A DNA stretch of 64,000 nt from a virus (lineage: Duplodnaviria; Caudoviricetes): the IMG/VR virus record IMGVR_UViG_3300028886_000051; one strand, written 5' to 3'. The notes under the pieces were generated by a model. That model saw nothing but the letters and a program-made list of their open reading frames with translations, was not told where the DNA came from and made no database searches. Each line of letters starts with the position of its first letter. Position 1 is the first letter of the stretch. A program made the translations under genes and the position numbers. Below are positions 2,288-62,862 of this stretch, one piece after another.

Positions 2288-5200
2288 ATCAGTAACTATA
2301 CAGTATATCATTTACATACAGAAGATTCTTTACTAGATAGTTGTACAAATTATAAGTTATATGTAGATAGAGCAGTAGAACTTGGACAGAAGGCTATTTG
2401 TTTTTCGGAGCATGGCAATATTTACAATAATATTGAGAAGAAGATGTATGCAAATAGCAAAGGTTTAAAATATCTACATGGCGTTGAGGTTTATTTGACA
2501 GCAGCACTTGAACCGAAACAAAGAGATAACTACCATACAATTCTTATAGCAAAGAATTTTGAAGGTGTAAAAGAAATAAACACATTGGTTGACTTGTCTA
2601 CACAATCAGACCATATGTACTATAAGCCAAGAATTACATTCGATGAATTTTTCAATATCTCTGATAATGTTATTAAAATTTCTGCATGTCTTGCATCTCC
2701 ATTGAGTAAATATCCTAATTTTATTGGAAAATTGGTTGATGAAAAAATAGTTGAATTAGAAAAAAATAAAGAAACAGAAGCTAACAAACTTTATACAGAA
2801 CTAAATTCAGAAGCTGCAAGAAATCAGTGGATTGAAGATAACACAATTATTCATAACACATCTTATGAAATATATGTAGAACAATGTATTGAAAAATCCA
2901 ATAATGCATTTGATTTACAGATAGAAGAAGCAAAATCAGAATTGGAAAATGCAAAGATTGTATATGACAAACTGATGAAAACATATGACTATTATGAAAT
3001 TCAGCCGCATGTTAAGTCTATGGATCAGATTCGATATAACAAAATGCTTTATGAGGCATCAAAAAAATATAACAAGCCTTTAATAGCAGGAACAGATACA
3101 CATAGTATTGATAGTTACAAGGCTGAGTGTAGGAGTATTCTTCAGAAAGCAAAACATATTGAGTTTTCAAACGAAGATGAATTTGACCTTACATATAAAT
3201 CGTATGACGAGTTAGTTGATATGTTCAAACAGCAAGGCTCTTTACCTATGAATGTTGTGTTGGAAGCTATCAAGAACACTAACCGCATGGCTGATTCTGT
3301 TACAGATTACGAATTAGATACAGCTTTTAAATATCCGATTCTCTATGACAATGAAGAAGAGGTATTTGTAGAGCGTATCTATAGAATGTATCATGAAAAG
3401 CTTGATAAAGGAATTATTCAACCAGATCCACGATATGAGGAGAATATAAAAGAAGAACTTCGAGTATTTAAGAAGATTGGTATGGTTGGATTCATGCTTT
3501 TCATGTCAGAATTGGTATGTTGGTGTTGGGATAATGGTATACCAATTGGTTTTTGTAGAGGTTCTGTTGGTGGTTCAACTATTGCATATTTAACAGATAT
3601 TATTGATGTAAACCCTGTAGTATGGAATACGGTGTTCTCTCGATTTGCCAATGAGGATAGAAAAGAGATTGGTGATATTGATTTGGATATTGCACCATCA
3701 CAAAGACATTTAGTATATGAGCATATCATTGAAAAGTTTGGTGCTGATAAAACAGCTTATGTGTTGGCTATCGGCACGATTTCTGACAAAGGTACTATTG
3801 ATGAGATTGGACGAGCTTTGAATATGCCACTTGGAGATGTCAAGCAAGTAAAAGCTCAGTATTCATTATTTACTGATGGTATTACTGATTGCAATGACAA
3901 GATTAAGAAAATTGAATCTATTGATGGATATGAAAATAATGAAAAGTGCTTAAAAGACTTGGAAGAACTTAGAAGTAAACTTGAGTATAACGAAAAGTCT
4001 TTGAAGGACTTAAAAGAAAAACAATATCCTAAGTTATTCTATTATTTTGACGGTCTTGTAGGAACTGCAATTTCTCAGTCGATGCATCCAGCAGGTATTA
4101 TTGTAAGTCCAGTAACACTACCTGATAATTATGGAACATTCTGGTCTAAGGATGGTAAACGTATTTTGAGTATCAATATGGAAGAAATTCACGAAGTTTC
4201 CCTCGTAAAATACGATTTGCTTGGTCTAAAAAACATAGAAATTATCAAAGATACATGTGAATTAGCACATATTCCGTATCCGAAATCCCATACAGTCAAT
4301 TGGAATGATGAAAAGGTTTGGGCGCATATTGCAGATAGTCCAGTAGGCATATTTCAGTTTGAATCAAAGTTTGCCTATGATTCAATGAAAAAGTTTGAAT
4401 GTCATTGCGTAAACGACTTGTCGCTTGTAAACGCTTCAATTAGACCTTCAGGAGAATCATATAGAGATAGGTTATTAGCACATGAACCAAACAAAAATCC
4501 ATCGGAGTTGATTGATAAATTGTTGGAAGATAATCATGGATTCCTTATATTCCAGGAGGACACAATTAAATTCCTTACAAATATTTGTGGTTTGAGTGGT
4601 AGTGATGCTGATAATATTCGTAGAGCTATTGGACGTAAGCAAAAAGATCGTCTTGAAGCTGCGTTACCATCTATTCTTGAAGGATATTGTAATATGTCCT
4701 CTCAGCCTAGAGAAATTGCAGAAAAAGAAGCACAAGCCTTTTTGAAGATTATAGAGGACAGCTCTAATTACCAGTTTGGTTTTAACCATTCAACAGGATA
4801 CTCAATGATTGGTTATATGTGTGCTTATCTCAGATATTATTATCCAAAAGAATTTATTACTGCGTATCTAAATAATGCCAATAATGAAGATGATATTATG
4901 CTTGGTACAGAACTAGCAAAACAACTTGGTATTACAATTCATAGCATCAAATTCAGACATTCTACTGCAAAGTATTCTTGTGATAAAGATGGTATTTACA
5001 AGGGTATTGCTTCTGTAAAGTTCCTAAACGAAGACGCTGCAAATGATTTATATTCCATTAAAGATGAGAAATTTAATACGTTTATTGACTTATTGGTAAG
5101 AATTTCTGACCTCAAAGTTGATAGCAGAAAACTTGAAATCTTGATTAAACTCGATTTCTTTGAAGAATTTGGTGGTATTCGTTATCTACTTACTTGTAGT

Positions 5201-6257: not shown

Positions 6258-7013
6258 ATGGACAAGATAAAAATTTTTGAAGGACTATTAAATAAGTTTG
6301 AGACAGATGAGATTAGAGATTATTGTGCTGATATGATTAAGGAAATTCCAGATTATATCTTCACAATTCCAAGTAGTACATCTTTTAAGTATCATAATAA
6401 AACACAGTGTCAGCCACATGGTCAGATTTTTCATATTTTAATGTTTGCAGAAGTAATGAATTATGTTCTTGGATTAGAGTATGTGAAAGAAAAGACTAAT
6501 GAGAGACAGCGAGATTGTTTACGCTGTACACCAATTTTTCATGATGCAATTAAATGTGGGTTAAATGGTTCTCAATATACAGTACATGAACATCCGATGC
6601 TTGCAGGTGAGTGGGTGAGAAATACATCTGTTGAGCATGATGTAGACGCTAATACAAAAGCATATATTGCAAGATTATGTGAGAGTCATTCGGGCGAATG
6701 GACTTCTACAAAGAGAAGTAAGACTGTATTACCAAAGCCTGAAAATGACGAGCAGTTCTTTGTACATATGTGTGATTATTTAGCAAGTAGGTCAAATCTT
6801 GATATGACATATTCTGATGATGTAATTTCTGCATTAGGTGGTGTTGATATTCCAAAGGAAGAGTTACCAGATATTGATTCTTATGTAATTACATTTGGAA
6901 AATATTCAGGAAAGACACTTTCACAAATCAAAGAAATTGATCCTGGTTATATCTCATGGGCAAAAGAAAATATGAGCAGAGAGCCAGTAAGAAGTTTATT
7001 GGCTCAACTATAG
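6258..7013 (+). CDS. HD-domain phosphohydrolase
   Basis: KYH, FHD..K, SHSG.W, H.CDYLAS; C-terminal FGKYSGKTL motif. Confidence 0.8.
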   Translation: MDKIKIFEGLLNKFETDEIRDYCADMIKEIPDYIFTIPSSTSFKYHNKTQCQPHGQIFHILMFAEVMNYVLGLEYVKEKTNERQRDCLRCTPIFHDAIKCGLNGSQYTVHEHPMLAGEWVRNTSVEHDVDANTKAYIARLCESHSGEWTSTKRSKTVLPKPENDEQFFVHMCDYLASRSNLDMTYSDDVISALGGVDIPKEELPDIDSYVITFGKYSGKTLSQIKEIDPGYISWAKENMSREPVRSLLAQL

Positions 7014-7041
7014 AGAATAATACGGTAGGAGATAATAAGCT

Positions 7042-7257
7042 ATGAAAATTTTAACACGATTATTTACGAAAAATCTTACTAAAATTCCTTTGTTGTGGAT
7101 TACATTCAACTGGAAGTTGTTTAAAAAGAATGGTGCAAAAGGTTCTTGTATATGTAATATTCATCCTTGTCTAAAGGATGATGAACACATTATTTCCACT
7201 ATGAATGAACTGTGTGATTATATTAGAGAGAATTACGACATGAAAGGAATTATATAA
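7042..7257 (+). CDS. Hypothetical protein
   Basis: ORF with AGGAG RBS. Confidence 0.6.
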   Translation: MKILTRLFTKNLTKIPLLWITFNWKLFKKNGAKGSCICNIHPCLKDDEHIISTMNELCDYIRENYDMKGII

Positions 7258-7258
7258 C

Positions 7259-7453
7259 ATGAAAATCATTAAACAAGGTGAATTAAAACCTGCCATAAAA
7301 AGAATAACATGTGAGAATTGTGGCACGATTTTTGAAGTAGAAAAGAATGAATGTAATTGCACTTCGCAAATGGGAGTTATGCACGATGGACTTGGTTCTT
7401 ACAACATTAAATGTCCTACATGTAAGGATACACAATATTTTAATTGGAAATAA
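7259..7453 (+). CDS. Small zinc-ribbon protein
   Basis: CENC...CPTC. Confidence 0.65.
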   Translation: MKIIKQGELKPAIKRITCENCGTIFEVEKNECNCTSQMGVMHDGLGSYNIKCPTCKDTQYFNWK

Positions 7454-7464
7454 GGAGAGAGCAA

Positions 7465-7842
7465 ATGAACAGAGATGAATTATTGAAAAAAGAAATAATG
7501 TCAAAAAAGGATACAATAAAAAATGCGTTCTTGAATCGTCTTACTTATGATAAGTGGGATAAGAAATCGCCTGTTTACGCCTATAATATTGTGCTATCTG
7601 AGTTTGAAAAAATTGATGATGTTGAACGAATTGAATTTTTATTACATCCATTCAATATCACACCATATGTAGTTTACTTTTCAAATAAAGAAGATTTAGA
7701 AGCTTATAAATGGGTTCATGATACTATTGAAAAAGAAATAGATGATAGGATTGCAGAAGGTTTTAAGGATCATATTAGTGATTTTGTTGATTGCAAAGAC
7801 TTATATTCAGGAGACTGTGCAGTATTTGCAGTCAGTCATTAA
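7465..7842 (+). CDS. Hypothetical protein
   Basis: AAGGAG RBS then ATG 7465. Confidence 0.6.
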   Translation: MNRDELLKKEIMSKKDTIKNAFLNRLTYDKWDKKSPVYAYNIVLSEFEKIDDVERIEFLLHPFNITPYVVYFSNKEDLEAYKWVHDTIEKEIDDRIAEGFKDHISDFVDCKDLYSGDCAVFAVSH

Positions 7843-7904
7843 AATCCAAGTAAAGACGGATTTCTCGTCCGTCATTTATATGAAATGAAAGAGAGGTATA
7901 AAAT

Positions 7905-8459
7905 ATGGTTTATGGAGTATTTGGTGGTTGTTATAGTGATTGGTATGTAGTTGGTTATTTTAACAATCGTCAAGATGCGGATAAATATTGCTGTGTATGT
8001 GGTGATGGTGATTATTATGTAAAACCGTTAAAAGATTTAACTGATGAAAAAGATTTATCAAAAGTATCATTAAAATACCATCATAAAGTTTTATTTGATT
8101 ATAAAGATGATGAAAACAGATGGGTTATGAGAGAAGAACCTGAAAGATACAATTGCTATATTGATAATGATTTAAGATGTAATAGTGTAAGACAAGGAAC
8201 ACTATGTAGAAATAATTGGGTATGTTTTAGTATAAATATTGACCATGATGATAGAAATTTAGCAGAAAAAATTGCTCAAGACTATTTAGCTGAACTTCGT
8301 TCTTATGGAGATGGAAAAATTTATGAAAAGAATATTGAATTGATGAATGATAAATTCGCAGCACCATTCAAGGAAAAAGAGAGAATAAGAAAAGAAGAAG
8401 AAATTAGACAAAAAGAAATTGCAGAATTAGAAAGATTAAAGGCTAAGTATGATGCATAA
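7905..8459 (+). CDS. Hypothetical protein
   Basis: ORF with GAGG RBS. Confidence 0.7.
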   Translation: MVYGVFGGCYSDWYVVGYFNNRQDADKYCCVCGDGDYYVKPLKDLTDEKDLSKVSLKYHHKVLFDYKDDENRWVMREEPERYNCYIDNDLRCNSVRQGTLCRNNWVCFSINIDHDDRNLAEKIAQDYLAELRSYGDGKIYEKNIELMNDKFAAPFKEKERIRKEEEIRQKEIAELERLKAKYDA

Positions 8460-8496
8460 TAAACGACAGTTTCTTGCGAAGATTAGAGGTGATTAA

Positions 8497-8778
8497 GTGG
8501 TATTAATAAATATAAATGACAACTGGGAAGAAGTTAGAGATTTGGAAGATGTTTCTAAAATAATCAGAGAATATTTTAATGAAGATTTGGCTTATGAAAT
8601 GGATAAGATGATTCCTGAACATACAGACGAAGAATATCGGGATTTAGAATGGCAATTAGAGGAAAAAGATGGCGATATTACTTCATTAGAAGATGAAAAT
8701 GATACTCTTAAAAATCGAATTGAGATTTTAGAAGATAAAATAGAAGAGTTGGAAGAAAAATTAGATAAATGCAAATAA
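8497..8778 (+). CDS. Hypothetical coiled-coil protein
   Basis: GAGGTG RBS, GTG start, heptad pattern. Confidence 0.65.
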   Translation: MVLININDNWEEVRDLEDVSKIIREYFNEDLAYEMDKMIPEHTDEEYRDLEWQLEEKDGDITSLEDENDTLKNRIEILEDKIEELEEKLDKCK

Positions 8779-8818
8779 CAAGAAGCCATTATTTTATGTG
8801 GAGATTAGGAGGTAGAGA

Positions 8819-9082
8819 ATGAAAGTAATTTTACAGTATACAGCTTGTATGTCTGACGATAAGAATGTTTTTGGAGTATTAGCTAGAAACAATGTAGAAA
8901 TTATTGAAACGAAACAAAAGCAGTTTTCAATTTATCCACTTGTCACAATTAGAGTCAAAGATACAAATACACTTAATAAAATTTTAGAGCAGTTAAATGA
9001 AAAATCTGTTTACGGGGTTAGGATTGCAAAAGTGAAATCAGACAAATCATTTATTGAGAGATTGAAGATGTTATTTAAATAA
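8819..9082 (+). CDS. Hypothetical protein
   Basis: AGGAGG RBS. Confidence 0.65.
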   Translation: MKVILQYTACMSDDKNVFGVLARNNVEIIETKQKQFSIYPLVTIRVKDTNTLNKILEQLNEKSVYGVRIAKVKSDKSFIERLKMLFK

Positions 9083-9135
9083 ATTCACAAAAATCTAAAC
9101 TTTCATTGGGATTTAAAAAATAGGAGGATTAAGAT

Positions 9136-9924
9136 TTGAAATTTGAGAATACAGAGGTATGGGGATTTGAACACGCATTTAGGGGTTTAAGAAATCCAAA
9201 AAATTCTTGGAATAGAAGTGATAGTAAATTTAATGATTATTATGACGAAGAACGAGCAGATGTTGATTTTGATGAATTATTAAAAGTATATCCTAATGCA
9301 TATATACATCATTGTAACATTAATGGATATTATACAGATATTATTGGTGAAGCGGATTTGAAACTTGCTCAGACTCTTATTAAAGCAGGAAATGAGCATA
9401 GAAAGTTTATGCGACAGATTTTTGTATCGGTTGATATTACAGCTCCTCTTTATTGGTGGAAAGAATTTGATACTTATAAAGTAGGAACGGTTGCGAACTC
9501 ATCGAGTACAATGCACAAGCTTGCTACAACACCAATTACATTAGATTGTTTTGAGATTGATGATTATGACAGAAATTTATCTCTTGCTGATAATCCAAAG
9601 GATGATGACGGGTTAGATAATATTTCAACATTTGAAGAGGATATTATTTATGTATTAGAAAATATTCGTCAGAAGTATCTTGAAACAAAAGATAAGAGAT
9701 ATTGGAAAGAGCTTATACGTTGGCTACCTGAATCATGGTTACAGAAGCGTACAGTTACAATGAATTATGAAAATGTTCGTAATATGTACTTTCAGCGTAA
9801 AAATCATAAGCTTACAGAGTGGTCAGAGTCATTTATCAAATGGGTAGAAACACTTCCATACGCAAAAGAGTTGATTATGTATGAGGCTAAATATGTTAAA
9901 ACATGTCATGATAAGCGAATCTGA
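9136..9924 (+). CDS. ThyX-like (flavin-dependent thymidylate synthase fold) protein
   Basis: H.KFMRQI, APLYWWKEFDTY, LPESW...TMNY, RK.HKL.EW; nucleotide-metabolism context. Confidence 0.65.
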   Translation: MKFENTEVWGFEHAFRGLRNPKNSWNRSDSKFNDYYDEERADVDFDELLKVYPNAYIHHCNINGYYTDIIGEADLKLAQTLIKAGNEHRKFMRQIFVSVDITAPLYWWKEFDTYKVGTVANSSSTMHKLATTPITLDCFEIDDYDRNLSLADNPKDDDGLDNISTFEEDIIYVLENIRQKYLETKDKRYWKELIRWLPESWLQKRTVTMNYENVRNMYFQRKNHKLTEWSESFIKWVETLPYAKELIMYEAKYVKTCHDKRI

Positions 9925-13783: not shown

Positions 13784-14041
13784 ATGGAAACAAGGATAGA
13801 AAAGAAGATAAAGTTTAAAAACTTTGAAGAAGTTGCTAACTTTATTGACGATATGACTTCGGTAAATACTGACGTAGATGTGATTAGCAATAAATACATA
13901 GTATCAGCAAAATCTATTATGGGTTTATTAACATTAGATTTAAGTAAGATCTTGGACATCTATTTTTATGGTAATGAAGAATCAGAGGATTTTAAGAAAT
14001 TTATTGACATAGTTGAAAAATATGCACCAGAAAGGAATTAA
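13784..14041 (+). CDS. HPr-like protein lacking His15
   Basis: VSAKSIMGLLTL Ser46 motif; no His in the protein; AAGGAGG RBS. Confidence 0.8.
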   Translation: METRIEKKIKFKNFEEVANFIDDMTSVNTDVDVISNKYIVSAKSIMGLLTLDLSKILDIYFYGNEESEDFKKFIDIVEKYAPERN

Positions 14042-14045
14042 TTAT

Positions 14046-14701
14046 ATGTATATGATAAATGATAACCATATAGATTTATATAACGTTACAGTAGGCGATT
14101 GTATAGATTTATATGAATTTAAAGGTATAGTTTCAATTCTTAGTGATGGAATGTTGCTTGGATTTGAAAAAGATAGCTGTTTTGAGGGTAAATAGGGTAA
14201 AAATATGACAATATGTACAGATAAATGTACTTCTTGTGTTAATGGAGAGTTAATACAGAAGTCAAGGGCAGATATAAAAATACGTTGTGAAGCAAAAGAT
14301 AAACTTCTACCTTATGGGTGTAAAGTAGAATGTGAATTTTTTGAAAAGAAAAAGGGAGAATAATATGGGTGTAAATATAATTATATTAATTTTAATTGGT
14401 ATTTTTCTTTTAAATTGTTTATTTTGTTTTGCAATGTGTAAAGCAGCATCAGATTTTGATGATATTTCAGATTTAAAAGAAAGTGAGGAAAATAATTATT
14501 TTACCAATAATGACAACACATTCATTAGCTAGAGAATTATTGGAAAAGCCTGACGGATTCGTGACTGCAACTATTGAAGGTAAAGAATTTGCAGTCACAG
14601 GATTCCGAAGAATGGCAACTTGTGCAAATTATGATGATACAAGTTTATATTGGACTTTAGTGTTAAGTGAATGCGAAAATAATAAAAATAAAAAAGTATG
14701 A
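14046..14701 (+). other. Cluster of short hypothetical ORFs, including a small membrane protein (~14365-14532)
   Basis: Tightly packed short ORFs with RBS-like sequences. Confidence 0.45.
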
Positions 14702-14791
14702 TGTGTAAAACCCTTGTAAAATAAGGGTTTCAGAGGTTTAAAATTACAATGAAAGGTTGATTTCTTGTGGAATTAAGAAAGGAGATAAAAT

Positions 14792-17017
14792 TTGAAAGTA
14801 ATTAAAAGAGATGGTCGAAAAGTTGATTTTGACCGTAACAAAATTATAAAAGCGGTTCTTGCTGCTTTCAATGAGGTAGATGGTGAAATTACCACAGAAG
14901 CAAAAAGAAAGGCTACAGTAATTACAAATCACATTGAATCATTAAATAAGAAGTCTATGAATGTTGAAGGTATTCAGGACATTATTGAAACGATGCTTAT
15001 GGATGGTAAGCGCAAAGATGTTGCTAGAGCATTTGTGATTTACAGAAATGACAGGACGAGAGAAAGAGAAAAACATAGCGACATTGTAAAGCGTGTTATG
15101 AAAAGAGTAAATGCAACAGATGTTCAGAACGCTAATGCTAATGTGGATGAAAAGAGTTTTTCTGGTAGAGAAAAAGAAGCGTCTGCCGATGTAGGAAAGA
15201 CCATTGCATTAGATTACGGTGGATTAAGCAAAGAGGTCGCACAGGCTCATAAAGATATGCTTATATATCAACATGATTTGGAAAAAGCAATTTATGGAGT
15301 GCATAATTGTCTTAATCTTGACTTTGGAGAAATTTTTACATACGGATTTAAGACACGCAATGGTGATGTAAGACCTCCAAAATCTTTCAGTACAGCTTGT
15401 CAGTTGGTTGCAGTAGCTTTTCAATGTCAGAGTCAGGTTCAGTTTGGAGGAGTTGGAAGTATTCATTTAGACTATGACTTAGCTCCTTTTGTAAAAATGA
15501 GTTTTTCAAAACACTTTAAAGATGGACTTAAATGGGTTGAAAATGAATCAGAAGATTATATTAATCATGTTCCAAAGTCTATTGGTATAGAAGATTTAGA
15601 AGCTAAATCACATAAAAAAGCATATGAATATGCTATGACAATGCTTGAAAATGAAGGTCAACAGTCAGCACAAGGATTATATCATAATTTAAATACTCTT
15701 GAATCACGTCAAGGCTCGCAAGTGCCATTCACTAGCATCAATCTTGGACGAGATACTTCACCAGAGGGAAGATTGGTTACTAAATGGATTATGAATGCAA
15801 GTATTGATGGTATTGGTGAACATCATTTAACAAGTATTTTTCCTATTAGTATTTTTCAATACAAAAATGGTGTTAATGCAAAACCAGGAGATCCAAATTA
15901 TGATTTGAAACAATTGGCATTAAAATCTATGTCAAAAAGAATTTATCCTAACTGGTGCAACGGAAATTGGTCACAGGCACATGAAGATGAAGATGATCCA
16001 GATACATTTTTCTCAACAATGGGCTGCCGTACTTTAGTTGGATATGACCGTCATGGGTTAGGTTATATTCGTCAGGGAAGAGGTAATAATGTACCAAATA
16101 CAATTATTTTGCCTAAGCTTGGCATTGAATATGGTATTTGTCTAGGCAAAAGAGATAAAGCAGATTTAGATGGATTTTGGAACGGTCTTGAAAATGCTTT
16201 ACAGTTATGTGAAAAAGGATTACTTGAAAGGTATGAATTAATCAAAAAACAGTCACCAAAATCAGCACCTTTCATGTATCAGAATCACACTATGAAAGGT
16301 TCAAGAGATTGTACTGAGACAGTAGAAAATGCAGTGAAACATAATACTCTTGGAATTGGATTGATTGGCGTTGCTGAAATGTGTGTTGCCTTATTTGGTA
16401 AAAATCATGCAGAGGATGAAAATATACACGCATTTGCATTATCAGTAGTTAAGAGAATATATGATTATGCAAAAGAAGCCAGTGAAAGAAATGATTTGAA
16501 TTTTGGATGTTATTTTACTCCGGCTGAAGGACTCTGTAGAACAGCATTAAAGGCATTAAGAGAACAATATGGTGTGATTCCAAATGTTACAAGCCATGAA
16601 TATCTTACTAATTCAGTGCACGTGCCAGTATGGCAGAAAGTTTCTATTTATGACAAATTAAGAATTGAAGCTCCATTTACAAAGTATGCAACATCAGGAT
16701 GTATCACTTACATAGAACTTGAATCTACTTTTGTACAGAATACAAAAGCTATAGAAGATATTATTGATTATGCTTTTAATGAGTTAGATATTCCTTATTT
16801 AGCATTTAATTTCCCAATTGATAGTTGTTTAGACTGTGGATACCAAGGTGAATTTAATAATGAATGCCCTCAGTGTGGAAGCAAAAACATTCAACAGTTG
16901 AGACGTGTGACAGGATACCTCACTACGGACTACCGCAATTTTAACGAAGGAAAACAAGCAGAAGTAGAAGAAAGAGTAAAGCATAGTGCATATACAAGCT
17001 TTGGAGATGAGAAATAA
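14792..17017 (+). CDS. nrdD: Anaerobic (class III) ribonucleoside-triphosphate reductase
   Basis: ATP cone VIKRDG, MGCRT, TPAEG, CxxC..CxxC, RRVTGYL glycyl-radical loop. Confidence 0.97.
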   Translation: MKVIKRDGRKVDFDRNKIIKAVLAAFNEVDGEITTEAKRKATVITNHIESLNKKSMNVEGIQDIIETMLMDGKRKDVARAFVIYRNDRTREREKHSDIVKRVMKRVNATDVQNANANVDEKSFSGREKEASADVGKTIALDYGGLSKEVAQAHKDMLIYQHDLEKAIYGVHNCLNLDFGEIFTYGFKTRNGDVRPPKSFSTACQLVAVAFQCQSQVQFGGVGSIHLDYDLAPFVKMSFSKHFKDGLKWVENESEDYINHVPKSIGIEDLEAKSHKKAYEYAMTMLENEGQQSAQGLYHNLNTLESRQGSQVPFTSINLGRDTSPEGRLVTKWIMNASIDGIGEHHLTSIFPISIFQYKNGVNAKPGDPNYDLKQLALKSMSKRIYPNWCNGNWSQAHEDEDDPDTFFSTMGCRTLVGYDRHGLGYIRQGRGNNVPNTIILPKLGIEYGICLGKRDKADLDGFWNGLENALQLCEKGLLERYELIKKQSPKSAPFMYQNHTMKGSRDCTETVENAVKHNTLGIGLIGVAEMCVALFGKNHAEDENIHAFALSVVKRIYDYAKEASERNDLNFGCYFTPAEGLCRTALKALREQYGVIPNVTSHEYLTNSVHVPVWQKVSIYDKLRIEAPFTKYATSGCITYIELESTFVQNTKAIEDIIDYAFNELDIPYLAFNFPIDSCLDCGYQGEFNNECPQCGSKNIQQLRRVTGYLTTDYRNFNEGKQAEVEERVKHSAYTSFGDEK

Positions 17018-17523
17018 TGTTACATATTGCAGGTGTGAATTATGAATCTATCGCAGATTCTGACGGTGTTTCATGTGTGATTTTCTTTAGCGGTTGTAAA
17101 CATTTTTGCAAAGGATGCCATTCAAAAGATACATGGGATTTCAATTATGGAATCCCTGTATCAGATGAATTAGCAATAACAATCAATAATGAAATAGATA
17201 AAAGACCATTCTTATCAGCTCTTGTATTGAGTGGCGGCGATCCAATGTATTCATCGTCAGAAGTATTAGAATTTATATCAAAAATCCACATACCCAACAA
17301 TACAATTTGGTGTTATTCTGGATTCTTAATCGAAGAAATTCAACAAAATTCAGAAATGAAAAAATTACTAGACAAGTGCAATATATTAATAGATGGTCAA
17401 TTTGAGATTGAAAAAAGAGTGATTAATTCTGGGTTTTATGGTAGTAGTAATCAAAGAATTTGGAGAAAAAATAAAAATGGTGAGTGGTTTATAGATTCTT
17501 CACGCTCTCCACATATTCAGTAA
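17017..17523 (+). CDS. nrdG: Anaerobic RNR activating radical-SAM protein (complete copy)
   Basis: CKHFCKGC, LSGGDP, IWCYSG, IDGQF, GSSNQR. Confidence 0.93.
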   Translation: MLHIAGVNYESIADSDGVSCVIFFSGCKHFCKGCHSKDTWDFNYGIPVSDELAITINNEIDKRPFLSALVLSGGDPMYSSSEVLEFISKIHIPNNTIWCYSGFLIEEIQQNSEMKKLLDKCNILIDGQFEIEKRVINSGFYGSSNQRIWRKNKNGEWFIDSSRSPHIQ

Positions 17524-17644
17524 GTATCTTATTGATGAGATTGGTTAATGAACGTCCATCTTTCTTAGCGAGTTCTTCTAATTTAGCTTTCATGTCTTTG
17601 TTCATATTAACAAGTACACCAGTTTTATCTTTACCGACAGCCAT
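17489..17644 (-). CDS. Ribbon-helix-helix (CopG/Arc-like) regulator
   Basis: GGAGGTG RBS; VLVNM...KAKLEELAKKDGRSLTNLINKIL. Confidence 0.85.
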   Translation of the reverse strand: MAVGKDKTGVLVNMNKDMKAKLEELAKKDGRSLTNLINKILTEYVESVKNL

Positions 17645-17666
17645 ATTATCACCTCCGTTTGAGAGA

Positions 17667-17742
17667 ATAATAACATATAGAACAGTTATAGTCAAGTTAT
17701 ATAACTTTCTGCTTGACAAAGGTTATATAACGGTTATATAAT
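17667..17742. promoter_or_regulatory. Divergent sigma70-type promoters for RHH and tnpB with GTTATATAAC palindromic repeats
   Basis: + strand TTGACA(17713)-N18-TATAAT(17737); - strand TTGACT(17695)-N17-TATTAT; repeats at 17696, 17722, 17733 and a half site at 17685. Confidence 0.7.
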
Positions 17743-17767
17743 CTAATCAGAAAAGAGGTGAAACAAT

Positions 17768-18982
17768 TTGAAGGTACAAAGATGTGAGCAGCATAATATA
17801 AAGTATGGAACTGATTTTTATAAATTTATTGATGAAATGTGTTTCAAGTCAAAGAATTTATACAATTATGCAAATTATATTATTCGTCAAGAGTTTATAA
17901 ATAATAGAAATTGGATTCAATATAATCAGTTATTTCATTTAGTTAAAGAATCCGAACCTTATAAGGATATTGGCAATAATACAGGTCAAGGTACTTTAAG
18001 AATTTTAGACAAAGCTTGGAAATCTTTTTTTAAGTCAATTAAAGATTGGAAGAAGAATCCAAATAAATATTTAGGTAGACCTAAACTTCCAAAATATTTA
18101 AAAAAGGATGGACGTTTTGTACTGTCCCTTGATAGCAACAAAGTGAAGTTGAAAGATGAATATGTATATTTTGCATGGAAGCCATTTAAACCATACAATA
18201 ATATGTTTAAGACAAACGCACAAGAGAGAATATTACAATGCAGATTCATTCCTAGATGTAGGAAGTATGTAATGGAAATCGTCTATGAAATCGAAGTACC
18301 AGACGTTTCAGAAACTTCTGATAGAGTAGCTGCTATTGATATTGGAGTTGATAATTTCATAACTATGGTAAACAACATTGGTGAAAATCCAATAGCTGTT
18401 AAAGGTGGAGTTATTAAGTCAATTAATCAGTTTTACAATAAACAGAAAGCAAATATTCAGTCAGAGTTGAAGAAAGTTAACGGAAAAGATTGGTCGAACA
18501 AGTTACAGAAACTTACAGACAAGCGGTATGAAATGATTAAATATCAGATGCATTGTATAAGTAAGTATGTAGTTGATTGGTGTGTCTTATATGGAATTGA
18601 CACATTGATTGTAGGACACAACGATGAATGGAAACAAAATAAACAAGGTATGCAGAACTTTACTTACATTCCATATGAACTATTTATTCAGATGCTTGCA
18701 TATAAATGTGAGAACAACGGAATTAGATTCATAGAAAATGAGGAAGCATATACTTCTGGAACATCATTTCTTGATAATGAAGATCCTGTAAAAGAGAACT
18801 ACAATAAGGAACGCAGAGTTCATAGAGGATTATTCATTGCAGATTGTGGAAAAAAGATAAATGCAGATGTAAATGGAGCATATCAAATATTAAAGAAGGT
18901 AATTCCTGAAGCTTTTAGCAAGGGAATAGAGGGTGCAGGTTCACACCCAACAATTATTAACTTGGCTATGCTGAGAGCGTAA
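17768..18982 (+). CDS. tnpB: RNA-guided endonuclease TnpB (no adjacent transposase)
   Basis: SKNLYN, PKLPKY, AIDIGVDN, EEAYTS, INADVNGA. Confidence 0.93.
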   Translation: MKVQRCEQHNIKYGTDFYKFIDEMCFKSKNLYNYANYIIRQEFINNRNWIQYNQLFHLVKESEPYKDIGNNTGQGTLRILDKAWKSFFKSIKDWKKNPNKYLGRPKLPKYLKKDGRFVLSLDSNKVKLKDEYVYFAWKPFKPYNNMFKTNAQERILQCRFIPRCRKYVMEIVYEIEVPDVSETSDRVAAIDIGVDNFITMVNNIGENPIAVKGGVIKSINQFYNKQKANIQSELKKVNGKDWSNKLQKLTDKRYEMIKYQMHCISKYVVDWCVLYGIDTLIVGHNDEWKQNKQGMQNFTYIPYELFIQMLAYKCENNGIRFIENEEAYTSGTSFLDNEDPVKENYNKERRVHRGLFIADCGKKINADVNGAYQILKKVIPEAFSKGIEGAGSHPTIINLAMLRA

Positions 18983-19007
18983 TGTAAAGGGGATTATAAA
19001 ACCCCAT

Positions 19008-19304
19008 GAATTCCGTATTTCCTTCCCTGAGAAAACTATCTGGTTGTATACAGGGTTTAAATGGGATGATATTATGTGTTCTTTTGCAGGATTACAAGCT
19101 GATCACGTTGTATCAAATGAGAAAGATATTGAAGCGTGGGAAAAGAGAAGAGAAATAATTTCGCTATGCGATATTCTCGTTGACGGGGAATATATAGATG
19201 AGCAGAAAGACCTTACATTGAAGTGGAGGGGTTCAAAAAACCAAAACTGTATTGATGTAAAGCAATCTCTTGCTCAGAATAAAATTGTTTTATATTGTGA
19301 TTAA
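19008..19304 (+). pseudogene. nrdG: 3' half of a second, displaced nrdG
   Basis: EFRISFPEKTIWLYTGF...DILVDGEYIDEQKDLTLKWRGSKNQ; no CxxxCxxC motif and no RBS. Confidence 0.88.
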
Positions 19305-19320
19305 AGGAGAGGAGTAACAA

Positions 19321-19875
19321 ATGCCAAGAAAAACATTAGCAAATACAGAACTACCTATTGAAGAAACAGACATAGAAGAAGGTACATTACCTTTCTTCTT
19401 AATAGATGATGAATATGGTATAGCCTGTGACCAATATTGTTATATGTTGTGTAAAAAGAAACGTGCAAATAGAACAATAAAGGACGAAGATGGCAAACCT
19501 AACCATATAGAGTCATATTGGTCTTGGACACCTTTTAAGTATACGGGTACATTTCAATCTATTATGGAAACATATGTAGAACAGAAGGAACGTGGCTTAA
19601 ATAAAAGAATAGTAAAGTCAAAGGACTTTAAGCAAATACTTGAAACATATAATAAAATTCATAAAATTATATCAAATTCATTAGATGTAGAAGGCTTAAA
19701 CAAATCTTTTATGTCAGTAACAAGTTTACTAGATCAAAAAGAAAAACTTTTACAAGAGATTTCAGAAGTACACGAACTAAAGGAAGACCTATTAAAAGAG
19801 TACAATGAATTACAAACCTTAATAAAAGAAAAACGAAAGATTATTGTAGATAAACACAAACCATTAAAAAATTAG
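19321..19875 (+). CDS. Hypothetical protein
   Basis: Strong RBS; C-terminal coiled coil. Confidence 0.7.
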   Translation: MPRKTLANTELPIEETDIEEGTLPFFLIDDEYGIACDQYCYMLCKKKRANRTIKDEDGKPNHIESYWSWTPFKYTGTFQSIMETYVEQKERGLNKRIVKSKDFKQILETYNKIHKIISNSLDVEGLNKSFMSVTSLLDQKEKLLQEISEVHELKEDLLKEYNELQTLIKEKRKIIVDKHKPLKN

Positions 19876-19887
19876 GAGGAAAAATAC

Positions 19888-20319
19888 ATGGAGACTATTA
19901 AAATTAAATATTTTGATAATGAGATAGATAAAATAGAAAAGATTAATAAGGGTGATTTAATTGACCTTCGTGCAGCAGAAACAGTAGAAATGAAAAAGGG
20001 TGATTTTAAATTAATTAAGCTCGGTGTCGGTATGAAGCTACCTGATGGATATAAAGCTAATATGTATCCACGTAGCAGTACATATAAAAATTTTGGTATT
20101 ATTTTAGCTAATAGTGTAGGACAGATTGATAATAGTTATAGCGGGGATTCAGATGAATGGAAATTTCCTGCAATAGCATTAAGGGACACAGTAATTCATA
20201 AAAATGATAGAATATGTCAATTTGAGATTCAGAGGATTCAGCCAGAGATTGAGTTTATAGAAGTTGAACATTTAGATGAAGAATCAAGAGGCGGTATTGG
20301 TTCTACTGGAATGAGATAG
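19888..20319 (+). CDS. dut: Trimeric dUTPase
   Basis: [29 protein letters not shown]. Confidence 0.95.
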
Positions 20320-20361
20320 TAAATAAAATATTAATAAGGCATAAAAAGCGAGGAGATAAAA

Positions 20362-20493
20362 ATAGACCACGAATATAAAGAAGGAAATATAAAAGTTATA
20401 ATTCAAATGCCTGAAGAAAACCCAAATGACGAAAAAATAAAAAATGAAGTAAAAAAAATAATGCAGGATGAATTGATATTTTTATTGAAATAA
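20362..20493 (+). CDS. 43-aa protein, candidate recombination directionality factor (ATA start)
   Basis: GAGGAG RBS 6 nt before ATA; open frame DHEYKEGNIKVIIQMPE...LLK; directly upstream of the serine recombinase. Confidence 0.45.
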   Translation: MDHEYKEGNIKVIIQMPEENPNDEKIKNEVKKIMQDELIFLLK

Positions 20494-20514
20494 GAAAAGT
20501 AAATGGGTATAATT

Positions 20515-61284: not shown

Positions 61285-61388
61285 TTAACAGCCACCTCCT
61301 TTTATTCCAATATAAAAAGAAGCCATCTCATACGAAATGACTTCTCATAATTTCCAATATTAAATTTCCAATGAAAGTGCAATTTAAA

Positions 61389-61470
61389 CGCCGTACACAC
61401 GATTCGAACGTGCAAGCCTTTTACAGCCAACGGTTTTCAAGACCGCTTCTTCACCACCCAGACATACGGC
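61389..61470 (-). tRNA. tRNA-Ser(TGA)
   Basis: GCCGTAT/GTACGGC acceptor stem, GCGGT-CTTGAAA-ACCGT anticodon arm, long variable arm, GTTCGAATC; no encoded CCA. Confidence 0.9.
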
Positions 61471-61474
61471 ATAG

Positions 61475-61559
61475 CGTAGAGTATGAGAGTCGAACTCATA
61501 AGCCAAATTAATGACCGACAGATTAGCAATCTGCTCCAATACCATTATGGGAACTCTAC
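61475..61559 (-). tRNA. tRNA-Ser(GCT)
   Basis: GTAGAGT/ACTCTAC acceptor stem, GCAGA-TTGCTAA-TCTGT anticodon arm, long variable arm, GTTCGACTC. Confidence 0.9.
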
Positions 61560-61657: not shown

Positions 61658-62862
61658 TTATGTTGTCACGTTGACAATCAATGGATGTAGACCTACACCC
61701 TCTATCCCGTCCGAAAATACATTCGGGAATGCCTTTTTCATAATTTGATATGCAGCGTTAATATCAGCATTTATTTTTATATTATTATTACTAATAAACA
61801 AACCTCTTTGAATACGTCTATCTTTATTATAATTTTCTTTACATGGAATTTCTGAATCAAGAAATGAAGTTCCAGATGTATATGATTCTTCAATTACAAT
61901 ATATTTAATGCCATTATTTTCACATTTATATTTTAGAATCTTGAAGAATAATTCATATGGTATATATGTGAAGTTTTGCATATTCTTAGTATTTTGTTTC
62001 CAACCATTGTTATGACCTATTACAAGAGTATCTACATCATATAAAACACAATAGTCGATTATGTATTTGCTGACACAGTGCATATAATTTTTTATTTTTC
62101 ATATCTTTTATCGGTTAATTTCTGAAGCCCTTTTGACCAATCATTACCATTTACTTTCTTTAATTCTGATTGCATTTCAGATTTTTTCTTATTATAATAT
62201 TGATTTATAGATTTGATAGCACCACCTTTGATAACAAAAGGTTGTTCACCAAAATTATTTACGACACTAACGAAATTTTCTACACCAACATCAATACTTA
62301 TAATTCTCTCTGAAAAAACTAAGCAATCCACAGTATCAATTTCATAAACTATTTCCATTACATAATGATTTCCTTTAGGAATAAATCTGCATTGTATTAT
62401 TCTATCTCTAACCTTTGTTTTGAACCGATTATTAAATGGTTTGAATGGACTCCAAGCAAAATACACATAACCGTCTTTTAATTTAACTTTATTGCTATCA
62501 AGAGCCAAAGTGTAACGACCATCTTTAGGTTTGTACCTTGGCATTTTTGGCATACCAAGATATTTAGAATGATTCTTCTTCCAATCTTTAATAGAAACAA
62601 AGAACGCCTTCCAAGCCTTATCCAACATTCTTAAAGTGGCTTGTCCTGTATTACTACCAATTTCCTTATAAGGTTCTGAATCTTTTACCATTTCAAATAA
62701 CTTATTATATCCAATCCAATTATTATTGGTAATAAACTCTTGCCTTATAATATAATTGGCATAGTTGTAAAGGTTCTTTGACTTTAAGCAGTAATTGTCT
62801 ATGAATCTTCCGAAATCTGTATTTAATTTTATGATATGTTGTTCACATCTTTGTACTTTCAT
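61658..62862 (-). pseudogene. tnpB: Second tnpB, split by a 1-nt deletion at ~62095
   Basis: Both ORFs are collinear with tnpB 17768-18982 (same MKVQRCEQH start); adding one A restores RYEKIKNYMH. Confidence 0.9.

Follow-up and report, generated by a model that had tools for sequence, protein, structure and literature searches.

How can a gene for the RNA-guided nuclease TnpB spread among phages when neither a transposase nor the left end of its element accompanies it? The question is raised by a 64,000-nucleotide (nt) stretch, hereafter the window, of the IMG/VR virus record IMGVR_UViG_3300028886_000051 (145.7 kb as a whole), in which the anaerobic ribonucleotide reductase gene nrdD, a complete gene for its activase, nrdG (type A, nrdG_A), a divergent ribbon-helix-helix (RHH) gene and tnpB are followed by a hairpin, the hexamer ATGAAT and the 3' part of another nrdG (type B, nrdG_B). 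Our analyses revealed that the ~4.2-kb block nrdD_A-nrdG_A-arc-tnpB, in which arc is the RHH gene, is present at 96-100% identity in at least 16 contigs from other samples and in at least four phage backgrounds, and that one and the same right junction joins it to at least six different nrdG_B 3' halves, which diverge from position +7, +11 or +20. On balance we favor the reading that TnpB serves here as a free-standing, RNA-guided homing nuclease which co-converts nrdD and nrdG.

The block, its junction and its intact targets

The initial annotation, made from the letters of the window, had described nrdD, a complete nrdG, an RHH gene, tnpB, a hairpin and the 3' half of an nrdG, and Pfam matches together with sequence comparison bear out each of these components:

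14749..14766, plus strand: junction palindrome ATGAAA-GGTTGA-TTTCTT, directly 5' of the nrdD 5' untranslated region; left limit of the shared block
14792..17017, plus strand: nrdD of type A, anaerobic ribonucleotide reductase, cargo of the block (Pfam NRDD, E 7e-149; ATP-cone; Gly_radical)
14795..15062, plus strand: putative left homology arm, the first ~270 nt of nrdD (blastn)
17017..17523, plus strand: nrdG of type A, activase, complete (Fer4_12, E 2e-34; radical-SAM CxxxCxxC cluster)
17489..17647, minus strand: arc, 52-residue ribbon-helix-helix repressor (RHH_5, E 7.7e-5, below the Pfam cut-off)
17648..17767, no strand assigned: putative bidirectional promoter with operator-like GTTATA(TAAC) repeats (sequence motifs)
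17768..18982, plus strand: tnpB, 404 residues, TTG start (OrfB_IS605 PF01385, E 2.8e-17; Cas12f1-like_TNB PF07282, E 1.1e-11)
18833..19011, plus strand: predicted omega-RNA scaffold, ending in the hairpin 18989-19005 and then the hexamer ATGAAT at 19006-19011
18989..19005, plus strand: hairpin 3' of tnpB, GGGG at 18989-18992, a 9-nt loop and CCCC at 19002-19005
19012..19031, plus strand: putative guide template, target-matched DNA of 16-20 nt, beginning at the first base to vary among tnpB copies
19012..19304, plus strand: type-B nrdG 3' remnant, from about residue 88 to the end (Fer4_12 partial match, E 1e-13)

The remnant frame (19005-19304) is open over 99 codons and covers only Fer4_12 profile positions 76-136/137, the last 45%; the portion kept after 19012 amounts to the 3' 55% of the type-B gene. 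As had been proposed, this is a different and diverged nrdG. Protein identity of the remnant is 27% to the resident NrdG but 62-84% to the products of intact nrdG genes in related phages, so it is far closer to the latter and represents a separate allele, with no duplication involved. A simple insertion into nrdG was rejected, given that the upstream nrdG is wholly of the other lineage and is paired with a type-A nrdD. An IStron was rejected as well, since the upstream gene is complete and of another lineage, hence not an exon, and Rfam gave no intron: at E ≤ 1 over 14000-20500, the search for a group I intron returned only a chance match to a small nucleolar RNA. The absence of a transposase, also claimed at the outset, held across the 145.7-kb record, where the profile of the Y1 transposase TnpA (PF01797) had no match; in addition, no Y1 TnpA was seen beside 24 viral tnpB loci by tblastn and in views of their open reading frames (ORFs). 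A megablast search of the INPHARED phage records gave no match.

By exact-protein look-up, the same TnpB was found on eight contigs and the same NrdG_A on 16, all from other samples; NrdG_A is always followed by arc, and the full gene order is kept in every contig long enough to hold it. The nrdD gene is 99-100% identical in L213, L215 and L220. Identity profiles against the window showed 99.6-100% over 15251-19000 and 65% after 19001 in L213, which has a tyrosine integrase and different neighbors; 100% inside the block and 68% after the junction in L216; and 95-100% and 63%, respectively, in L220. Outside the block, the ligase is 74-80% and the dUTPase 67% (L213) identical, the neighboring genes differ, and the integrase of the window is a serine enzyme. 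On the left side, identity to L213 climbs through 85%, 98% and 100% over 14751-15500, within the conserved 5' end of nrdD, and this gradual rise makes the left boundary fuzzy. The right breakpoint is exact and recurrent, with a fall in identity from 100% to ~65% at base 19012. L213 keeps the window sequence through +19, and L208, whose block is 4% diverged from that of the window, has a flank identical at 497 of 497 positions to that of the TnpB-free L026/L159, where the intact nrdG_B reads AAGAAA and then the target. Sequence comparison accordingly displays the pattern of a homing endonuclease, namely an identical nuclease-bearing segment in diverged genomes, an unoccupied allele and co-converted flanks.

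The suggestion that tnpB travels with a replacement nrdG and the RHH gene is therefore retained for the movement of the block as one unit, with the correction that a whole nrdD is also carried. It does not extend to ultimate origin: tnpB and the nrdDG_A pair evidently had separate origins, as L004 has nrdDG_A without tnpB and the closest tnpB relatives lie at other loci. In L220 (6742-7965), the 3' two-thirds of tnpB is only 95-97% identical to the window, against 99-100% for the nrdDG part, and this pattern suggests recombination between tnpB variants inside the block. A 34-codon ORF for a predicted small hydrophobic peptide lies between the palindrome and nrdD in L213 (2900-3005) and L220 (3650-3757) and is absent from the window.

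The seam between nrdG_A and arc is common to all block copies. The two genes overlap tail to tail over 35 nt (17489-17523), the last codons of each being the antisense of the other; homology to type-A nrdG stops at ~17487-17496, and the NrdG_A C-terminus has an 8-residue extension translated from the antisense of arc. The identical fusion in every copy indicates a single origin. Welded in this way to nrdG_A, the window arc lacks its native last two codons and the left-end DNA, and homology to L211 begins only at 17504, inside arc. The window has no left end with its subterminal hairpin; in complete arc-tnpB modules (L211 and the P0063 family), the left side comprises 50-190 nt of DNA with a palindrome and a hairpin. 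Because the module has lost this DNA and the final two codons of arc, it is not movable by a transposase.

Related phages carry two types of allele at this locus. Type-A relatives (L004-L012) have nrdD and nrdG genes that are 78-98% and 68-80% identical to the resident pair, without tnpB; in type-B relatives (L013, L015-L024 and L026), nrdD is ~50% identical and the intact nrdG is of the same kind as the remnant. The resident nrdD is 98% identical to that of L004 and 47-53% to those of type-B loci, and in its outer flanks (ligase, dUTPase) the window resembles type-B phages. The first ~270 nt of nrdD, covering the ATP-cone, are 92-98% identical across both types, though type-B nrdD is otherwise ~50% identical in protein; this segment looks like a recombination arm that has been repeatedly homogenized. 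Other nucleases are found here too: in L015, a free-standing HNH endonuclease gene (8284-9381) lies between nrdD and nrdG, and in L019 a GIY-YIG gene (6804-7592) splits nrdD into ORFs of 224 and 513 residues, with no Rfam intron at gathering score in either contig. The nrdD/nrdG locus is, by all appearances, a homing hot spot.

Relatives with the uninterrupted allele, whose existence the initial annotation had called for, are common: 116 IMG/VR contigs carry an intact type-B nrdG including the guide-matched stretch, and L018 matches the guide region over 28 nt. Directly 5' of the target, all 116 intact nrdG_B genes and three other unoccupied sites bear a W-W/R-G/C-A/T-A-W hexamer, which is also half of the general junction palindrome considered below. 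Among the 116 it reads AAGAAA (47), AACAAA (34), AGGAAA (21), AACTAA (10), ATGAAT (2) or ATGAAA (2), and these purine-rich hexamers resemble the terminal ATGAAT of the element. A putative target-adjacent motif (TAM), which was likewise anticipated, is thus found abutting every intact target. The first 16 guide bases of the window are exact in 12 of the 116 contigs, and 56 carry the variant found in L208 and L215. The exact junction 17-mer had seven matches in IMG/VR, all unrelated and dismissed as chance.

The nuclease, its regulator and its guide

The protein carries an OrfB_IS605 RuvC core and a C-terminal TNB domain, both above the Pfam cut-offs, and its family profile matches the structures of Cas12f and of the ISDra2 TnpB. 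Its invariant residues are D191, D367 (in NADVN) and E325/E326. The canonical D-E-D RuvC triad is not found: the RuvC-II glutamate position is occupied by an invariant glycine, G283, and E325/E326 lie ~42 residues downstream. Also missing is the C4 zinc finger between RuvC-II and RuvC-III, where TSGTSF...ADCGKK replaces CxxC...CxxC. A glutamate-to-glycine change, an alternative glutamate ~42 residues downstream and a NADxN RuvC-III are shared with the RuvC-II-rearranged TnpB clades (Altae-Tran et al. 2023, PMC10691335), which are predicted to be active; some of their branches are virus-enriched, and the zinc finger is lost in some large ones. Judged by its motif pattern, this TnpB is of the RuvC-II-rearranged type, a match that stands at the level of motifs and names no branch (RIIr-4 or RIIr-5). 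Between the occupied loci of the window and L208, the ratio of nonsynonymous to synonymous substitution rates (dN/dS) of tnpB is 0.06 at a dS of 0.21, and the gene is evidently under purifying selection.

We fetched 24 viral and 80 genomic relatives of tnpB. The best of them, 94% identical, is in a Eubacterium segne genome contig, and the relatives share window DNA only from ~20 nt 5' of the start codon to the hairpin and ATGAAT. Weak or non-standard start codons (TTG, ATA, ATT) are apparent in many tnpB homologues (L029, L034, L039, L041 at ~position 4000, and position 17768 of the window); together with an in-frame stop just upstream, they suggest deliberately low translation. The window holds a second, decayed tnpB copy at 61658-62862 on the minus strand, 62-70% identical in protein, with a stop and a frame shift. 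It is placed, without arc, between a tail-fibre-like gene and two tRNA-Ser genes (61388-61559), and its end reads hairpin, ATAGAT, six bases and TTTTAT.

The RHH-tnpB module that had been singled out is indeed present, but its RHH gene is not a new partner: the gene appears to be the already described Arc, the known repressor of the IS605-family bidirectional promoter, reported in a 2026 preprint. A plus-strand promoter (TTGACA-18-TATAAT, 17713-17742, consensus at 12 of 12 positions) faces tnpB, a minus-strand promoter (TTGACT-17-TATTAT, 17695-17667) faces arc, and GTTATA repeats at 17685, 17696, 17722 and 17733 cover both. At the level of sequence, a small RHH gene divergent from tnpB with repeats over the -35 and -10 elements is the arrangement expected of Arc, whose binding to this DNA is putative. 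The Arc homologues form 285 clusters, typically of 48-50 residues and ending in ...EYVESQK. One of them, P0063, the only homologue examined, was always beside tnpB, being divergent to a 400-residue TnpB in eight different contexts, and the RHH-tnpB pairing recurs elsewhere (L065 and the P0063 and P0003 families). The idea that an RHH gene accompanies this tnpB clade in general was rejected, the 24 closest viral loci being without one.

The right end of the element was defined in two ways. Among 26 tnpB copies, the common sequence runs only to the hairpin and ATGAAT, ending at 19011, and in four of four pairs of occupied and unoccupied alleles (nrdG_B; L043 vs the window's own genome; L032 vs L041; L041 vs L034) the break falls exactly between the hexamer and the next base. 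Since both lines of homology end after ATGAAT, the guide template would start at 19012, the first base shared with TnpB-free alleles. A guide drawn from the old nrdG_B, as originally put forward, is thereby kept as the probable template and by homology, with its start moved one base to the right. The guide (19012-19031) is unique in the window at up to three mismatches. A guide that starts at the hairpin and includes the hexamer was rejected, because the hexamer is constant with tnpB, variable in unoccupied alleles and predicted to be paired in the scaffold.

The hairpin covaries across 12 copies (RNAalifold), its four pairs having 7, 1, 4 and 6 double compensatory changes. The same program pairs ATGAAT with 18833-18838, the codons of the conserved GLFI motif, and outlines a scaffold of ~180 nt; a single-sequence RNA fold was no better than shuffles (z = 0.07). 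A covarying 3' structure, a conserved hexamer and then site-specific sequence are the features that, as far as sequence can tell, an omega-RNA would present.

At other loci, the tnpB segment replaces DNA and is not simply inserted (L041:3951-5236 vs L034:1371-1673, and L032 vs L041:6584-7450). One such replacement removes a small membrane-protein ORF, the left junction lying within it, after ATTAAA. At a further site, where sister phages have tnpB, there is instead a sequence with an apparent DPPY motif (manual reading), a putative Dam-like methyltransferase.

Homing and competing explanations

In the homing scenario that we favor, positions 14771/15250 to 19011 would constitute a mobile block without a left end, made up of nrdD_A, nrdG_A, arc, tnpB and the omega-RNA, and would spread among related gut (Lachnospiraceae-type) phages by RNA-guided homing. 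The Arc-controlled promoter would drive tnpB transcription, and the 3' part of the transcript would fold into the omega-RNA scaffold, terminating in the hairpin and AUGAAU; the next 16-20 nt, templated by the adjoining old nrdG_B, would be the guide. Should the cell also harbor a phage or prophage whose nrdG_B is intact, TnpB with its omega-RNA would recognize the hexamer (mostly AAGAAA) and the match, and cut. The break would then be repaired from the block-carrying genome, with the right crossover within the first ~20 nt past the junction and the left crossover in the near-identical first 270 nt of nrdD. The crossover of L213 falls at +19/+20, close to the known cutting position of TnpB enzymes. 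The recipient would lose to the block the body of its nrdD, whatever homing-endonuclease gene separates nrdD from nrdG, and the nrdG_B 5' half, while the 3' half of its nrdG_B would stay as a scar and become the new guide template. The donor would escape cutting, because its own target no longer adjoins the 5' half with the hexamer and nothing in nrdG_A matches, and function would be kept because a matched nrdD/nrdG pair is carried along. In this scheme we infer the nuclease activity, the TAM, the omega-RNA ends and a break, as opposed to mere recombination, as the driver of spread.

Several observations argue for RNA-guided homing. The right boundary is sharp and the left one fuzzy, one junction, which coincides with the end of the tnpB element, is shared by at least six nrdG_B alleles, targets are common (the 116 contigs), tnpB is intact and constrained, the module is unable to transpose, and the locus is a hot spot of homing genes. 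In addition, TnpB-dependent, TnpA-independent spread between plasmids has been reported in the literature, and the element end of CboTnpB sets a precedent by imitating the TAM except at one base, TCGG vs TGGG (PMC10690162).

Other observations weigh against it. First, ATGAAT resembles the target hexamers, and TTGAAT or AAGAAT occurs in some TnpB-free alleles elsewhere; the idea that a T at the last hexamer base marks self consequently holds only partly, and no single base accounts for the avoidance of self-cleavage. Second, several occupied alleles differ inside the guide (+7, +11, +14), so that the donor guide must at times have been mismatched, unless the crossover took place to the left of where the cut is expected. 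Third, only ~30 nt of nrdG_B by the junction is well conserved, and plain recombination would also be forced to cross there. Fourth, the pattern hexamer-N6-TTTC is the general palindrome of the phage family and also marks TnpB-free boundaries (14749 vs L004). Fifth, among the IMG/VR contigs, no occupied allele was found besides the window's own record. Finally, with a glycine at the RuvC-II glutamate position and no zinc-finger cysteines, activity would depend on the published prediction for such clades.

The palindrome deserves closer attention. It consists of an A-rich hexamer, six locus-specific bases and TTTCWT, often with CCA/TGG, and occurs in the window at 7849, 8458, 8780, 9089, 14749, 43334 and 61371, in L200-L207, and left of arc in L211. 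The sites lie just 5' of ribosome sites at gene junctions, and their six central bases are conserved per locus across phages. Before nrdD these bases are GGTTGA, and this site precedes nrdD or its upstream insert in L004, L015, L018, L026, L213 and L220; homology to L004 starts at 14752. The bases 3' of 19011, six site-specific bases and then TTTC, follow the same pattern.

These sites make it conceivable, though in our judgment unlikely, that cassettes are exchanged at the family palindromes by a recombinase or a structure-specific process; the block would then be bounded by the sites at 14749 and 19006, the nrdG_B site would be a chance look-alike, and tnpB would be cargo or would merely land beside such sites. 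Consistent with such exchange, every tnpB copy, even distant Clostridia ones, is followed by N6 and TTT(C/T)A(T/A); arc-tnpB modules of the P0063 and L211 types bear a full palindrome on their left side; the tnpB segment of L041 replaces DNA between two such sites when compared with L034; the boundary with L004 at the 14749 palindrome is TnpB-free; and nearly identical tnpB copies have flanks that differ immediately past TTTC, even without downstream homology. However, no candidate enzyme travels with the block, the integrase itself differing between the window (serine) and L213 (tyrosine), and enrichment of the motif in this genome is weak (8 matches at one mismatch vs 1-5 at other spacings). 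The left hexamer, moreover, is a constant ATGAAT only with tnpB and is predicted to be paired in the omega-RNA, which marks it as part of the tnpB element and not as a neutral site, and purifying selection on tnpB would go unexplained.

A further reading, which we hold to be doubtful, would turn the palindromes into landing pads for a guild of end-less TnpBs, with the hexamer as TAM, the six bases and the right half as guide seed, and breaks driving modular swapping. Were it true, the guide would be rewritten at each transfer, and the palindromes would form an RNA-guided counterpart of integron or homing-endonuclease islands, genome-wide.

Ordinary mosaicism together with selection for nrdDG_A is also rather improbable. 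It would invoke one ancient illegitimate junction, later homologous recombination and a passenger tnpB, inactive or otherwise employed (e.g., in RNA-guided repression or competitor killing without copying). It gains from the occurrence of nrdDG_A without tnpB (L004-L012), from the non-canonical catalytic site and from the decay of other tnpB copies (the second copy at 61658-62862 and L043 carry stops); besides, the nrdD 5' end and the ~30-nt nrdG_B patch are the only sites at which phages this diverged could recombine, so sharp boundaries would be expected without a nuclease. Yet exchange through the flanking genes would leave no scar if nrdDG_A were the unit under selection, and wherever a contig continues beyond the block (at least six flank alleles), the block stops with the right end of tnpB and the remnant is retained. 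In addition, 3.7 kb at 100% identity in genomes that are 65-80% identical elsewhere indicates very recent and repeated transfer, and the low dN/dS of tnpB is at odds with a mere passenger. Palindrome exchange and mosaicism both explain the sharp boundary, but neither explains the scar and the tnpB right end in every transfer, or the constraint on tnpB.

Classical IS605 transposition, by which arc-tnpB was inserted into nrdG_B, and is still moved, by a host TnpA supplied in trans, with nrdDG_A acquired later as repair, is highly improbable: the tnpB is of IS605 type with canonical relatives bearing other right ends in Bacilli, arc-tnpB modules with left-end DNA occur in many contexts and insertion beside an AT-rich motif fits the IS200/IS605 rule, but the block lacks the left-end DNA and the final arc codons, all its copies have arc welded to nrdG_A, the record has no TnpA, and such transposition would neither carry 3 kb of nrdDG nor yield one junction with six flank alleles.

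Relation to known systems

It is known that TnpB rescues its own transposon through cleavage of the donor site left empty, and its spread into homologous DNA that lacks the element has been demonstrated only in laboratory experiments, between plasmids. A 2026 review lists TnpB homing between phages only as a theoretical category, and in the literature searched, neither TnpB-mediated homing between phages nor co-conversion of cargo by TnpB was described. If confirmed, RNA-guided homing at this locus would provide a route by which RNA-guided nucleases persist and spread without a transposase, would imply that such nucleases reshape phage genomes and phage-phage competition in the gut, and would demonstrate that selfish nucleases can drive the replacement of whole metabolic gene pairs; with matched nrdD/nrdG cargo, destruction of the target gene would cost nothing. 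The locus would also offer a compact natural set of guide/target pairs for a poorly studied, catalytically rearranged TnpB clade.

The module resembles the IS605-family arc-tnpB elements (Meers et al. 2023, PMC10055086; Moon et al. 2026, bioRxiv 10.64898/2026.09.24.754181) in that arc and tnpB diverge from a bidirectional promoter in which operator-like sites recur. As in IS605-family tnpB generally, the omega-RNA would lie at the tnpB 3' end, with the guide from the right-end flank, and copying, as proposed here, would proceed by a break and recombinational repair. Unlike those elements, the block has neither TnpA nor a left end, its left limit being set by homology. It also departs from TnpB retention homing, in that the target would be the unoccupied allele in another phage and not the element's own vacated donor site on the sister chromosome, and in that the copied unit would include 3 kb of non-transposon cargo (nrdD and nrdG).

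CboIStron, an IS607-family TnpB element of Clostridia (Zedaveinyte et al., PMC10690162), shares with this locus an Arc-like ORF and a position inside a gene whose function is preserved. Its element end resembles the TAM with a one-base difference that prevents self-cleavage, and the end in the window resembles the putative TAM too. There, an intron is spliced and a serine TnpA is present; here, no intron was detected by Rfam, and a replacement gene pair preserves function.

The likeness to the free-standing homing endonucleases of T-even phages (SegF; MobE between nrdA and nrdB; PMC155333, PMC2790892, PMC2988022) extends to a nuclease gene between conserved genes at a ribonucleotide-reductase locus. 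As proposed here, the allele of a related co-infecting phage would be cut near the nuclease gene's own position, with flanking markers co-converted, as in T-even intronless homing; the island likewise has no fixed outer boundary, and competing endonuclease genes (HNH and GIY-YIG) occupy the locus in relatives. In contrast to the T-even enzymes, the target would be set by a guide RNA from neighboring DNA, rewritten to the recipient allele at each transfer, and the target gene is split and replaced by a diverged pair instead of being kept with resistant substitutions. The locus may thus represent a natural, population-level case in which an end-less tnpB appears to act like a T4-type free-standing homing endonuclease whose target is specified by RNA.

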